The notes below the pieces were generated by a model, which had not been told where the DNA came from, did not search any database, and saw only the letters and a program-made list of their open reading frames with translations. From Chiloscyllium plagiosum (taxonomy: Eukaryota), in assembly GCF_004010195.1 (NCBI RefSeq), contig NC_057754.1:9381524-9445523 (forward strand): DNA of 64,000 nucleotides, written 5' to 3'. Each line of letters starts with the position of its first letter. Positions within the stretch are counted from its first letter, which is position 1. Below are positions 13,305-57,327 of this stretch, piece after piece. The translations under genes were made by a program, and so were the position numbers.

Positions 13305-13928
13305 ACACCGTTCGGTGTTCTCTGTACCATCACGCCTAGGAATAGGAGTTGGTTGTCCTTTTCTTCCTCTCTAGTGAATCGGACTCCTGTGAGTGTGGCC
13401 TTGATGATCCGGTGTGTGTTCTCTATTTCCGTGATTTTAATGATAACAAAGGTGCCATCCACATATCTGACCCAGAGTTTGGGTTGAATTTGCGGTAAGA
13501 CTGTTCCAGAGGACAAACAGAAAGACAGCTAACAATCCGTATCCATGAACAGCAACGAGCCACGAAACGACACGACCAGCTGTCCTTAGTAGCCACACAC
13601 ACAGATGACTAGCAACATGAATTCAACTGGGACAACACTACTATCATAGGACAAGCCAAACAAAGAACAGCCAGGGAATTCCTAGAGGCATGGCACTCAT
13701 CCAAAGATTCAATCAATAAGCACATCGACCTGGACCCAATATACCGACCACTGCAGCGGACAGCTGGAACTGACAACCGGAAGCGACAGATTCAAACCAC
13801 TATAAATGCCGGAGGAAACATCACAGAAGCGCTTCACAGGAGGCTCCCAAGCACTGAGGATGTCACCTAGACAGGGGACGAAACGTCTGCAACACAAATT
13901 CCCAGCTCGGCAAACAGAACCACAACAA
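13305..13928 (+). mobile_element. Penelope-like element (Poseidon-type), 5'-inverted, with hammerhead ribozyme
   Basis: 13305-13510 is an inverted RT piece (PKLWVRYVD[G]TFVII). 13510-13760 is GIY-YIG C-terminal sequence (GQT..QL..RIHE...AREFLEAWHS). A hammerhead core lies at 13851-13890. Confidence 0.85.
13851..13890 (+). ncRNA. Minimal type-I hammerhead ribozyme motif
   Basis: GCA-CTGAGGA-T-GTCACCT agac AGGGGAC-GAAA-CGTC-TGC: core CUGANGA/GAAA, stem I GCA:TGC, stem II hairpin, palindromic ACGT stem III, GUC cleavage triplet. Confidence 0.75.
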
Positions 13929-14279
13929 GAATGCATGTGTTTGTAAAATGCAATGGGAGACAATGAGTTCAGTTCCACTGTTTTGTTAATGCTGCCCTCT
14001 GCTGATTGTTGTTTGAGCTACAGGCAAAGCCACCTGGAATTTAATGTCGTGTGGGTTTATTTGCAGGACTTCTGCAGAGTAATTCTGATATTGGTTCTCT
14101 GGCCATATGGGTGTTTTTCTGGTGGTGCAAATATTGAATAAAGTATTTTGCACAACGTGTCTTCTCTGAGTGCCTGAATGTACACACACACAACCTGGCT
14201 GTTGTGGGGAAAGATAAACTCTACTGCAACAGTAGTGTGGGGGTAACAAAAAAAAAGACTCTGGGATATTATAAGACAC

Positions 14280-14570
14280 AAATTCCGATAACTGACAATC
14301 TGTCCTGGACTTCCCACCTGGATGTGAAAGTCAAGAAGGAACAGCGCCTCTTCTTCCTCAGGTGCCAACTTTTACAGATGCACCATTGAAAGTCCAGGTG
14401 TACAATGACCTGGGCAACTGCTCTGGACCGTGAGAAACTACAGAGGGTGGTGTGCACATCCCAGACCATCACTGAAGCCAAGCTTCCATCCATGGACTCC
14501 ATTTACACAGCTCGCTACTGCGCAAAGACCCATTCTGCCCTGGTAGTGCTCTCCTACAACCTCATCCATT
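14280..14570 (+). mobile_element. Rex1/Babar-like LINE fragment
   Basis: ITDNLSWTSH...KK.QRLFFLR motif. Confidence 0.65.
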
Positions 14571-14572
14571 AG

Positions 14573-14800
14573 GGGCAGCACAGTGGCTCAGTGGTTAGCA
14601 CTTTAACTCACAGCACCAGGGACCTGGGTTTGATTCCCGCCTCAGGCGACTGTGTGGAGTTTGTACATTCTCCCTGTGTCTGCGTGGGTTTCCTCCCACA
14701 GTCCAAAGATGCGCAGGTCATGGTGGATTGGCCATGCTAAATTGTCCATAGTGTTAGGAACTTAGGTACATGTGACAATAAATCAAATCAAATCAAACAA
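14573..14800 (+). mobile_element. HE1-type SINE 5' portion joined to a Rex1-like 3' tail
   Basis: The HE1 head and core run to ~14758, then CTTAGGTACATGTGACAATAAATCAAATCAAA, which matches the minus-strand tail at 18505-18560. Confidence 0.7.
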
Positions 14801-14949
14801 CACAAAATCCTGGAAGAGATCACTGGAGGCTCTCCTCACTTTTATTTGGTTGTTCAATCATCCCCTAATGGGGAAAAGTCAGATCCCAGAATGAAACCTA
14901 GCTTGATAGATCTGGAGATTATATTTTATTCTATCATGACCATGGTTAT

Positions 14950-54631: not shown

Positions 54632-54734
54632 ACTGAAAATCTGGTAACACCCAGTTCCTAATGAAGTGACTAACTCAGATCTTGATTTGACGTTTAATTT
54701 TCAGTTTCCTTTCTGAAAATCCTCTTCCAGTATC
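54632..54734 (-). other. Putative non-coding internal exon (ZNF leader module)
   Basis: Acceptor TCTCTTTTGCAG| and donor |GTAAGC; homologous to the leader at the start of each ZNF coding exon. Confidence 0.5.
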
Positions 54735-55064
54735 CTGCAAAAGAGATTCACAAAAACCATCACTACCAGGCCAGGACAGAAATTCAGAAGGGTCAAATAT
54801 TTCTTTGGGTTTGAGTTTGTTGTATATAAATCCTCCCATTCTGACACCCCCAGAGGAAGACCGTTGAACCTCTAACCCTGTCACTCTAGGAGAAAAATGG
54901 ACAAAACTCTCTTCTCCTGTATCCTCATCCAGATGGCCATACATGTATTCTGTTCCGCATTTCCTCTTTTTATCATCAGCTGTTCCGGGTCATGATGTTT
55001 TTCTGCTGTGGATCTTCATATTACTGATCACAGCTCAGTTCATTCAGGCAGAACACTGGCTGGC

Positions 55065-55580
55065 ATTATTGCCTCACAGTGCCTGGGAGCTGGGGTTGAT
55101 TCCGCTGTCGGGGGAGAAAGTGAGGACTGCAGATGCTGGAGATCAGAGCTGAAAAATGTGTTGCTGGAAAAGCGCAGCAGGTGAGGCAGCTTCCGAGGAG
55201 CAGGAGAATTGACGTTTCGGGCATGAGCCCTTCTTCAGAAGAAGGGCTCATGCCCGAAACATCGATTCTCCTGCTCCTTGGATGCTGCCTCACCTGCTGC
55301 GTTGATTCCACTGTTGGGCAACTATCTGTGTGGTGCTTGCACATTCTCTCTGCATATGCATGGGGGTTTCCTCTGAGTGCTCCAATTCCACCCCCCCCCC
55401 CCCGAGTCCAAAATCGTGCACTGGTCATGCCAAATTGCTCATAGTGTCCAGAGTTGTGCAGACTGGCGGGCGGGGGCGGCGCCATCGTAAATGCAGGGTA
55501 GGGGTTGGGATGGTCTTTGGAGGGTCGGTGTGGATGCCATGGGCCGAATGGCCTGCTTCCAAGGTGTAGGCATTCAATGA
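55065..55580 (+). mobile_element. HE1-type SINE interrupted by a palindromic Penelope-terminus insert (55113-55300)
   Basis: TSD GTTGATTCC(G/A)CTGT(C/T)GGG at 55095-55112 and 55301-55318. Confidence 0.85.
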
Positions 55581-55639
55581 CACAGGGAAACCAGAGATCA
55601 TGATTTGCCTCTCTTTGCTTCTCTACCGACGCTCTGCTT

Positions 55640-56105
55640 CATCAGCAATACACTGCGTCTCGAGGACTTATGCAGCTTCGTGGACAAATTGTGGCCATTC
55701 TGAAACTGCACCTTGGAATGTCAAAGTCATTGAAACAATTGCCCCGCAAAAAGATGGCGGCCGCGCATCCTTCCCGGCATACATTGCTCCCAACAAAAAT
55801 GGCGGCCGTTAGCTCGGGCCTAACGCTGGAAGCCGCGGCCTCACTCTGTGTAAACAAGTGGACCAGAAAACCTACTCCGAGGGGGGCTGGGACTTACGCA
55901 ACATGTTTAATAAACCTCCCCATCCATCAAGCGGGTCCATCGCTCCCTCGGCACCGCCTTTTTTTTCTCATCGTTTACGGAGCCGACATTAGAGCTTTCA
56001 CCTATCGCCCGCGATCACTCCGCGCATGCTCCGTACACGCCAACACAGTGCGCACGCGCCCCTGCCGTTGGGTCCAACCAAGAGCTGGGAATGCTGGGTA
56101 ACAGA
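55640..56105. promoter_or_regulatory. CpG-island promoter, probably bidirectional
   Basis: Most CpG-rich non-repeat stretch by eye; two YY1 motifs (AAGATGGCGGCC 55751-55762; AAAATGGCGGCC 55796-55807); NRF1-like CGCGCATGC (56021) and TGCGCACGCGC (56049); minus-strand donor GTAAGT at 55897-55892. Confidence 0.75.
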
Positions 56106-57327
56106 GAACATGAGGCACTGGAGATAACAAGAGGGTCATGCATGGGGAGACAGCAAGCCAACGTTTCTAGTCTAGGTGACTCTTCATCAGAGCTGGAGAG
56201 AAGTGTGGAGGGTGGTGCTGGGGGAAAAAAAAAGATGTTGATAATGGCAGCACAATGATGGGTCCAACTGCTAGATTGGAAAGGGCAGGCAGCCCCACTA
56301 GAGTGGGGAATGGGCGAGGGGACATGGTGCCAGGGAATATAACCAGTAAAGCTAAAAGAAAGTGCATGAGTGGGTTCACAATGAAGGTGTTGAACTCAAT
56401 GTTGAGCCCAGAAGTTTGTAAAGTGCCTAGTTTGAAGATGAAATGTTGCTCCTCAAGTGGTGCTGTAATTTGTTGGAGCATTGTACTATGCCAAGGACAG
56501 ATAATTTAGGCATGCAAGCACGATGCTGTGTCAAAACGACTATTTAGTGGAAGGTTGGGGTCATGCTTGGTGCATGGGCCGGAGATATTCTGCAAAGTGG
56601 TCACCCAGTCTGTTTGATTTCTCCAATGTAGAGTAGGCCACATTGGCTGCAGAACATACAATACACAAGTTTGGAGGAGGTACAGATGAAATGTTGCTTC
56701 ACCTGGAAAGACTGTTTAGGTCCTTGAATGGGGAGTAAGGAGGAGGTGAAGGTGCGGGTGTGGTTACATGAGAAGGTGCTGTGGGAAGGGTGGGGCACAG
56801 AAGTTAATGTTGGTGATTGAAGAATGAACCCATTCCTTTGCTTACTTTTAGCTTTTCTTGTTACTTTCTCTGTCACCATGTCTCCACCTCCAGTAAGACT
56901 GCCAGTACTTTCCATTCTGGCAGTTGGACACACCATTGTTCTGCCCTTCTCGCATTCTGATCACTTAAGCTGAACTAACAACATCCTTTTCCCCCAGCAG
57001 TCCAACCCTGCCCTCCCCACTATTGCGTAAGTGCTGCTCCCTCCACCTCTGATGAAGAATTATCTAGACTCAAAACATTAGCTTGCTTTCTCTCCATGAA
57101 TGCTGCCTCTAACAACATCCTTTTCCCCCAGCACTCCAATCCTGCCCTCCCCACTATTGTGTAAGTGCTGCTCCCTCCACACTGCCCTTCAGCTCTGATG
57201 AAGAATTATCTAGACTCAAAACATTAGCTTGCTTTCTCTCCATGAATGCTGCCTGACCCGCTGCGATCTCCAGGTCAATTTGTTTCCAATATAGATTGAA
57301 GCATCGGCAGTAATTTGCTCCTACCTC
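56106..57327. mobile_element. Penelope-like insert with inverted arms and 14-bp TSD
   Basis: TSD TGCTGGGTAACAGA at 56092-56105 and 57328-57341; minus-strand GIY-YIG remnant (HFICTS..LVYC..CSQCGLLYIGE; EQHFIFKLGTL..GLN); 56165-56380 is inverted relative to ~56826-57200. Confidence 0.85.

Follow-up and report, generated by a model that had tools for sequence, protein, structure and literature searches.

A stretch of 64,000 nucleotides from the shark Chiloscyllium plagiosum (contig NC_057754.1, positions 9,381,524 to 9,445,523 of the forward strand; hereafter the window) harbours numerous short inserts, which can with high confidence be regarded as the 3' end modules, each composed of a minimal hammerhead ribozyme motif and a tail of ~125 nt, of several families of endonuclease-bearing Penelope-like elements (PLEs). 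The inserts of one family, designated A (the labels A to E are those of this analysis), pile up at a sharp 5' edge directly in front of the hammerhead. On balance, a slight preference is given to the explanation that the reverse transcriptase (RT) primes in the tail and runs off the 5' end of its RNA just upstream of the hammerhead, i.e., at the transcription start.

Hammerhead motifs in the window

Positions within inserts are counted from C3 of the hammerhead core, which is set to 0, and cleavage is predicted after +27. The window was scanned with the pattern CTGAnGA-N(8-24)-GAAA, and cores were regarded as strict if they combined >=3 pairs in stem II with an ACGT or AGCT palindrome. Among the 24 candidates obtained, 11 proved to be strict minimal-hammerhead cores, with C3 at 13854 (+), 16696 (-), 19747 (+), 21855 (+), 24444 (-), 27492 (+), 29070 (-), 30996 (-), 34087 (+), 51109 (+) and 55238 (-), whereas 200 dinucleotide shuffles contained no such core in 189 cases, one in 10 and two in 1. 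All 11 feature the CUGANGA box, the bulged base, stem II, GAAA, the palindromic stem III and the NUH triplet of minimal hammerheads (min-HHR). As judged from the sequence, the hammerhead motifs in the window are real and of the minimal type I, for which self-cleavage is predicted, as dimers or with the assistance of protein. None of the 18 matches of an Rfam scan of the window at E<=5 was a hammerhead, and energy folding of the motif did not produce the active fold.

A preliminary description of the window had named 14 core sites, at positions that are accurate within a few bases or correspond to the low end of minus-strand motifs. Eleven of them are intact and three are broken, namely 33907 (-), where stem III reads AGCG and U16.1 is lost, 35635 (-), where stem III reads ACTG owing to an insertion, and the plus-strand arm at 55238 (CAGAAGA...GAAACAT). 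The degenerate copies mentioned there were all recovered, at 24602 (+; stem II mismatch), 42297 (+; core reads CCGATGA), 56190 (-; core intact, stem II unpaired under the pairing rule used), 57049 (+) and 57195 (+; AAAA replaces GAAA in both). Profile searches added further, older and decayed stubs. Likewise, the proposed diversity of at least three stem II families was extended to five sequence families (A-E), whose stem I and stem II sequences differ with pairing kept, and the cleavage triplets turned out as reported, i.e., GUC in families A and C, CUA in B and GUU in D and E. Stem I comprises only 2-4 bp, and its pairs change between families (A: C-G/T-A; B: C-G/A-T/C-G; C: A-T/C-G/G-C; D: T-A/T-A/G-C; E: T-G or T-A/C-G/G-C/A-T). 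Matches to CTGAnGA..GAAA at 4198, 4260, 21134, 42417, 50405, 50476, 54432, 54979, 58232, 60016 and 62790 were dismissed as chance or as parts of long interspersed nuclear elements (LINEs).

Assignment to Penelope-like elements

The Penelope origin put forward in the preliminary description is borne out by the family A hammerhead at 27492, which terminates an RT fragment inside one 12-bp target site duplication (TSD). The RT match of this long copy extends over 25944-27094, and for its part at 26585-27094 identity amounts to 85-90% with three proteins annotated from Chiloscyllium punctatum, 73% with a fourth and 63-70% with proteins of other sharks and rays, which makes a bamboo-shark-like host probable. 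Identity to the Chiloscyllium PLE proteins with Cys linker and GIY-YIG is 88%. The nuclease part of family A falls in an assembly gap (N), and relatives with 85-88% identity have a GIY-YIG domain together with a CX4CxxC linker; in the window, the start of a CX2-5CxxC linker directly precedes the gap, and P0002 has this linker in full. Since a Cys linker in front of GIY-YIG is the mark of Neptune and Nematis (PMC8557442), families A and E were tentatively placed in this group, with Neptune and Nematis taken together. GIY-YIG fragments were found at 56377-56813 (family E) and 13500-13855 (family C). The relatives of the latter (81-89% identical) read VVYKIPCxxC..YIG without the Cys linker, and family C was therefore assigned to the Penelope/Poseidon type. 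Families B and D show PLE architecture and are without a coding link in the window. Together with their relatives, the inserts display the RT with C-terminal GIY-YIG in one ORF (open reading frame), the optional tail of 30-40 bp, the head-to-head 5' copy and the variable TSDs of endonuclease-bearing PLEs.

For comparison, 80 RT-bearing metagenome loci, the best 80 of 491, were inspected. A strict hammerhead motif occurs in 17 of them, and a long ORF begins 3-518 nt downstream of the hammerhead in 9 of 10 loci checked. Three related loci (L053:1875, L057:1370 and L060:19) feature a hammerhead variant (GAAAAATT, without the 4-nt palindrome) ~370 nt upstream of an ORF of 228-236 aa, which precedes a PLE-like RT match. 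The DNA patterns of family A gave no matches in metagenome, viral or prokaryote collections, and the PLE protein alignment gave none among viral contigs.

Ends of the family A inserts

Family A is represented by nine inserts in the window (UTR, untranslated region):

16606..17022 (-): 417 bp, 14-bp TSD, intact core C3 16696, tail-less end at +90; in order, a 20-nt tail-end match, a possible ORF start (unconfirmed), 3' UTR and hammerhead
18898..19042 (+): tail-only palindrome without core, sense arm +49..+125, inverted arm +51..+92, 10-bp TSD
19746..19873 (+): stub of 128 bp, 15-bp TSD, intact core C3 19747, 5' end at -1 (up to -5 owing to microhomology)
25687..27620 (+): long copy of 1.9 kb including a 274-N gap, 12-bp TSD, intact core C3 27492; frameshifted Neptune-type RT and thumb, 3' UTR, hammerhead and tail
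28946..29079 (-): stub of 134 bp, 16-bp TSD, 5' end at -9, intact core C3 29070
30872..31167 (-): 296 bp, 15-bp TSD, sense arm -125..+124 (C3 30996), inverted arm +22..+67 at its 5' end
35512..35645 (-): stub, broken stem III, 13-nt micro-palindrome with its centre at -3, TSD not found
42221..42431 (+): palindrome of 211 bp, 14-bp TSD, degenerate core C3 42297, sense arm from ~-3, inverted arm +28..+92
55113..55300 (-): palindrome of 188 bp, 18-bp TSD with 2 mismatches, C3 55238, palindrome centre at the first base of the core, core of the plus-strand arm broken

TSDs of 10-18 bp flank 8 of these 9 inserts; among 300 random 30x30 boundary windows, only 3 scored >=10, the real search ranges being similar or larger. 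The preliminary description had characterized many of the inserts as non-coding units of 130-300 bp with TSDs of their own. This applies to family A as far as the TSDs are concerned, but the hammerheads at 13854, 27492 and 56190 end RT or GIY-YIG fragments, and the inserts around 16696 and 21855 measure ~420-460 bp.

The sense arms of family A end at +123..+134 in 8 of 9 cases and at +90 in the insert of 16696, and the inverted arms of families A and D end at +92, +92, +90, +67 and +64. Tail-less ends at +90..+92 are thus found in the 16696 insert and in 3 of the 5 A/D inverted arms measured against the core, and sense arms extend ~35-36 nt beyond the +90 end. As this difference of ~36 nt matches the published length of 30-40 bp (PMC3846280, PMC8557442), it was equated with the PLE tail. 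An AC-rich stretch within a conserved stem (GAUGCUG/CAGCAUC) contains or adjoins the +90 end. None of the 7 pairs of this stem has changed on both sides, so that its conservation is no more than suggestive.

The 5' ends of family A are located at -1, -9, -3, -3, 0, -125, -326 (the composite insert), -1805 and +49, with both -3 ends and the 0 end being palindrome centres; inverted arms occur in at least 9 inserts of the window. Five of the nine ends thus fall within -9..0, a pile-up for which the most favourable exponential null gives P=1.7e-5, or 3e-4 after a 20-fold correction for the choice of this interval afterwards. The older D-like stubs at 12100, 20428/20439, 23225, 44015 and 51109 seem, by eye, to start at the core edge as well. 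Whether the ends are discrete or continuous had been named as a check by the preliminary description: in family A they are discrete and do not form a smooth truncation series, whereas family B shows no spike at the edge.

The sense arms at this edge start 0-9 nt upstream of the core, i.e., ~28-37 nt upstream of the cleavage site. Because they contain the whole core upstream of that site, the template RNA was presumably uncleaved, and cleavage was reported to be unnecessary for insertion of the anole PLE (PMC11167929). Starts at the cleavage site (+28) are lacking among the sense arms; they were seen in one inverted arm (42297) and perhaps in 23242, too few to weigh. The respective arms, 42221-42293 and 23236-23314, begin at or near +28 and might go back either to the occasional copying of cleaved RNA or to deletion of a hairpin via GA microhomology.

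Two side observations concern individual copies. The composite at 16606-17022 (-) contains ~110 nt resembling an ORF start fused to the 3' UTR and is possibly an internally deleted derivative similar to miniature inverted-repeat transposable elements; protein searches did not confirm the ORF-start reading of its 5' part. A doubtful degenerate hammerhead-like motif (C3 25575) is located at 25540-25590 (-), ~110 bp beyond the 5' TSD that borders the long copy.

The 5' edge in sequencing runs

Shark sequencing runs were aligned to the family A copy at 30866-31122 (257 bp) at 88% likeness. Matches comprised 58,873 contigs in run X1 (~84% of the run read), 50,395 contigs in run X10 from a second organism (85% of the run read) and 2,343 RNA reads in run X21 (2% of the run read), with contig depth in X1 and X10 not being equivalent to copy number. 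The 5' edge in these runs is real. Among the loose ends listed, the sole 5'-side one with long heterogeneous flanks is located at -3 in all three runs (314 contigs, 329 contigs and 222 reads, respectively; agreement 0.34-0.40), and 3' loose ends cluster at +124..+126 in each of them. Depth of the RNA reads amounts to ~1,140 in the tail, 710 in the core and 128 upstream, which corresponds to a 5.6-fold drop across the front edge of the core. Moreover, 94% of the aligned RNA reads continue into unrelated flanks, as would be expected of copies lying within host transcripts. A 133-bp head-to-tail joint was present in 3 contigs among the joints listed.

Relation between short and long copies

A tree of the nine family A copies (126 columns) contains two supported forks, one uniting 29070 with 30996 (short and long; support 96/94) and one uniting the short copy 42296 (C3 42297) with the RT-bearing 27492 (support 98/96). 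Both pair a short with a long copy, and no separate clade of short copies emerged from the 9 rows. As short copies are sisters of long ones, stubs appear to arise repeatedly from each parent lineage. Head-to-tail units are rare, with one decayed tandem in the window (57049/57195) in which both cores are broken. Accordingly, the suggestion of the preliminary description that the short inserts form a separate family, similar to retrozymes or short interspersed nuclear elements (SINEs) and mobilised in trans, was not upheld. A Pol III head (tRNA, 5S or 7SL) was sought as well, and none of the inserts gave a tRNA or Rfam match. The sole tRNA gene of the window is a tRNA-Trp(CCA) at 22233-22304 (+; Rfam 68 bits). 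An origin of the stub as an excised intron was considered, the tail of 16696 ending in a pyrimidine tract before AG, and rejected because the copies seen have no GT donor around -10..0.

Origin of the 5' edge

Under run-off at the RNA 5' end, a family A transcript starting near -4 would place a tail close to its 5' end. Priming at that 5' tail would yield a run-off cDNA of ~130 nt, i.e., a stub, and priming at the downstream tail copy would yield long, randomly truncated inserts. Palindromes would form if both target strands were used for priming or if the end of the cDNA snapped back. The template would be uncleaved, with the hammerhead merely being carried along and not defining the ends. 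For Poseidon of the anole, reverse transcription was shown to start internally at two sites delimiting the tail, in an AC-rich stem-loop; the enzyme cuts and extends the two target strands, and the length of the in vitro products depends on the template 5' end (PMC11167929). Drosophila Penelope features an internal promoter in its pseudo-long terminal repeat (pLTR) (PMC2377424). The family A copies with intact upstream sequence (3 of 3) all show an initiator-like YYANWYY whose A occupies -4.

Several points weigh against this explanation. The YYANWYY motif was spotted post hoc at a background of 1-2% per position, and families B, C and E lack it at this place, as do 22 of 22 invertebrate hammerheads. 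Family B stops at the core edge in 0 of 5 arms, and only 2 of 6 inverted arms of invertebrate loci start there. The continuity from tail to ORF in family A is taken from one composite insert, unconfirmed by protein searches, and the tree behind the sisterhood of short and long copies is small, with only 9 rows and 126 columns. With regard to the sequencing runs, the depth step at the edge is inflated, because the reference copy has a 3-nt deletion at this point and the 3' UTRs of other subfamilies fail to align at 88%. Finally, no pile-up of read starts indicating a transcription start was seen in the RNA reads, which come from a poly(A) single-cell library unsuited for this question.

The same PLE end modules might instead owe their edge to the enzyme, either because the RT falls off past a folded or protein-bound hammerhead or because GIY-YIG cuts the intermediate at the ATT at -4..-2. 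This is the most serious alternative, possible albeit doubtful. The anole enzyme favours cuts at ATT (PMC11167929), which family A offers at exactly this place, and the starts of inverted arms at +18, +22 and +28 near stem II resemble structure-linked stopping; older D-like stubs share the edge without having an ATT. Nevertheless, the hairpin of family B is equally good, yet no stops occur at its edge, and from general knowledge a stall would be expected 3' of the hairpin and not after it has been read through.

Self-propagating, non-autonomous units of the retrozyme or SINE kind, moved in trans, appear improbable. Such units would account for the discrete ends with their own TSDs and for an abundance of 58,873 and 50,395 contigs on 257 bp; the stub retains the conserved tail stem-loop and possibly the start site, a head-to-tail joint of 133 bp exists in 3 contigs, and PLE-derived retrozymes were reported from one chondrichthyan genome (10.64898/2026.07.22.740005). 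Evidence against them comes from both supported clades (2 of 2), in which a short copy groups with a long one, from the lack of any sense arm beginning at the cleavage site, from the broken cores of the window's single tandem pair and from the 94% of aligned RNA reads that run into unrelated flanks.

Ordinary random 5' truncation without any special boundary, which the preliminary description had offered as its alternative, is very unlikely and contradicted for family A. Heavy 5' truncation is typical of PLEs (PMC8557442, PMC8969392), copies of long and intermediate size are present and family B lacks the spike, but 5 of 9 family A ends within 10 nt (P<=3e-4) and an identical edge in three sequencing runs are at odds with it.

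Further inserts and genomic setting

The 18 delimited inserts, some with approximate limits, occupy ~6.7 kb or 10.5% of the window. Apart from family A, the following were recognized:

13500..13926 (+): family C, 3' end of a Penelope/Poseidon-type PLE with the C-terminal part of GIY-YIG, intact minimal hammerhead 13854-13887, short 3' end; TSD not found, limits approximate
21498..21956 (+): family B, ~460 bp, intact core C3 21855, CUA triplet; 7-bp TSD no better than chance
24332..24635: family B head-to-head pair, C3 24444 (-) intact and 24602 (+) degenerate, junction ~80 nt upstream of its cores; limits approximate
33789..34170: family B head-to-head palindrome, C3 33907 (-) with broken stem III and 34087 (+) intact, centre at ~-88, one arm ~35 nt longer (tail), 11-bp TSD with 1 mismatch
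51005..51205 (+): family D head-to-head pair, intact core C3 51109 (GUU) on the sense arm, inverted arm +18..+90; TSD not found, limits approximate
56085..56813 (-): family E, decayed Neptune-type GIY-YIG end and hammerhead-like motif C3 56190; limits approximate
56975..57275 (+): inverted partner of family E, two tandem end units of 134-146 bp, cores 57049 and 57195 broken
20330..20502: older D-like head-to-head pair, both arms starting at degenerate cores
22543..22718: older D-like tail palindrome, 11-bp TSD, without core
23134..23314: older D-like palindrome whose two arms start at degenerate core 23225 (-) and close to the predicted cleavage site, respectively

Further decayed D-like hammerhead or tail stubs are located at 681-761, 12006-12100, 12441-12630, 21055-21207 and 44009-44150. 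The window has a GC content of 39-49% and contains C2H2 zinc-finger exons, the tRNA-Trp gene and many LINE fragments. Long zinc-finger exons at 35998-36825 (+), 40478-41533 (-) and 61851-62729 (-) apparently belong to a gene cluster (Pfam on the first only). Inverted LINE fragments at 2091-2762 flank an assembly gap (N 2245-2510) and are possibly an assembly artefact. Besides, 30-bp inverted arms 89 nt apart at 44929-45077 are unrelated to the PLE families and may represent a small DNA-transposon derivative.

Relation to known systems

The pLTRs of metazoan PLEs carry min-HHR, with thousands of motifs per genome, which are mostly single and "probably related to truncated PLEs", with opposite-strand pairs 100-700 bp apart (Cervera and de la Pena 2014, PMC4209133). 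The motifs of the window correspond to these in their core, the extra base before stem II, the G10.1-C11.1 pair, the palindromic 15.2-16.2 and the presence of several families per genome. They differ by a stem I of only 2-4 bp, and sharks and the 5' ends of inserts are not treated in the parts of that study drawn on here. The 5' truncation, adjacent inverted copy, optional tail of 30-40 bp, TSDs, palindromes at pLTR 5' ends and solo pLTRs are all shared with the endonuclease-bearing groups Neptune/Nematis and Penelope/Poseidon (PMC8557442, PMC3846280, PMC8969392). Most family A copies, by contrast, consist of hammerhead and tail only, with a sharp 5' edge of which no description was found there. 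Likewise, the anole Poseidon element PAc features two 3' ends one tail apart, in or beside an AC-rich stem-loop, an uncleaved RNA template and the usage of both strands (Frangieh et al. 2024, PMC11167929). The ORF of PAc starts inside the hammerhead, whereas that of family A likely begins ~165 nt downstream (unconfirmed), and genomic run-off stubs are not discussed in the sections of that account considered here (PMC11167929).

Non-LTR retrozymes are defined by head-to-tail repeats with a complete hammerhead per unit and by circular RNAs. Like the inserts, they are short, do not code for protein, carry type I hammerheads with a relationship to PLE pLTRs and also occur as dispersed monomers (PMC7229834, 10.64898/2026.07.22.740005). 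The copies in the window, by contrast, are dispersed or head to head, carry minimal motifs instead of canonical hammerheads and include no intact tandem. The motif, the host element, the tail, the inversions and the solo copies are already published, and the window adds a new host example, with only the 5' pile-up being possibly new. Neither a shark study of PLE hammerheads nor an account of such a pile-up was found in the literature covered, although Lunse et al. 2017, Arkhipova 2006, Repbase/Dfam and supplements lay outside this scope and may already cover them.

Implications

The sharp 5' edge bears on how PLEs complete their integration, on where their RNA starts and on the role of the hammerhead, and it indicates that uncleaved RNA served as template. 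Shark genomes preserve fossil junctions by the tens of thousands and an in vitro assay for PLEs has been published, so that run-off, stalling and nuclease cutting can be tested against each other. A further-reaching and rather unlikely reading likens the ~130-bp stubs to the strong-stop DNA of retroviruses and regards them as its PLE equivalent, i.e., as run-off copies from a cap site at the hammerhead edge. Retaining the start site and the RT-binding tail, each of them could be transcribed and recopied, which would give rise to a class of ribozyme-headed SINEs driven by RNA polymerase II and outnumbering their parents. If this is true, the shared 5' edge of the stubs would amount to a map of PLE transcription starts obtained from DNA alone.

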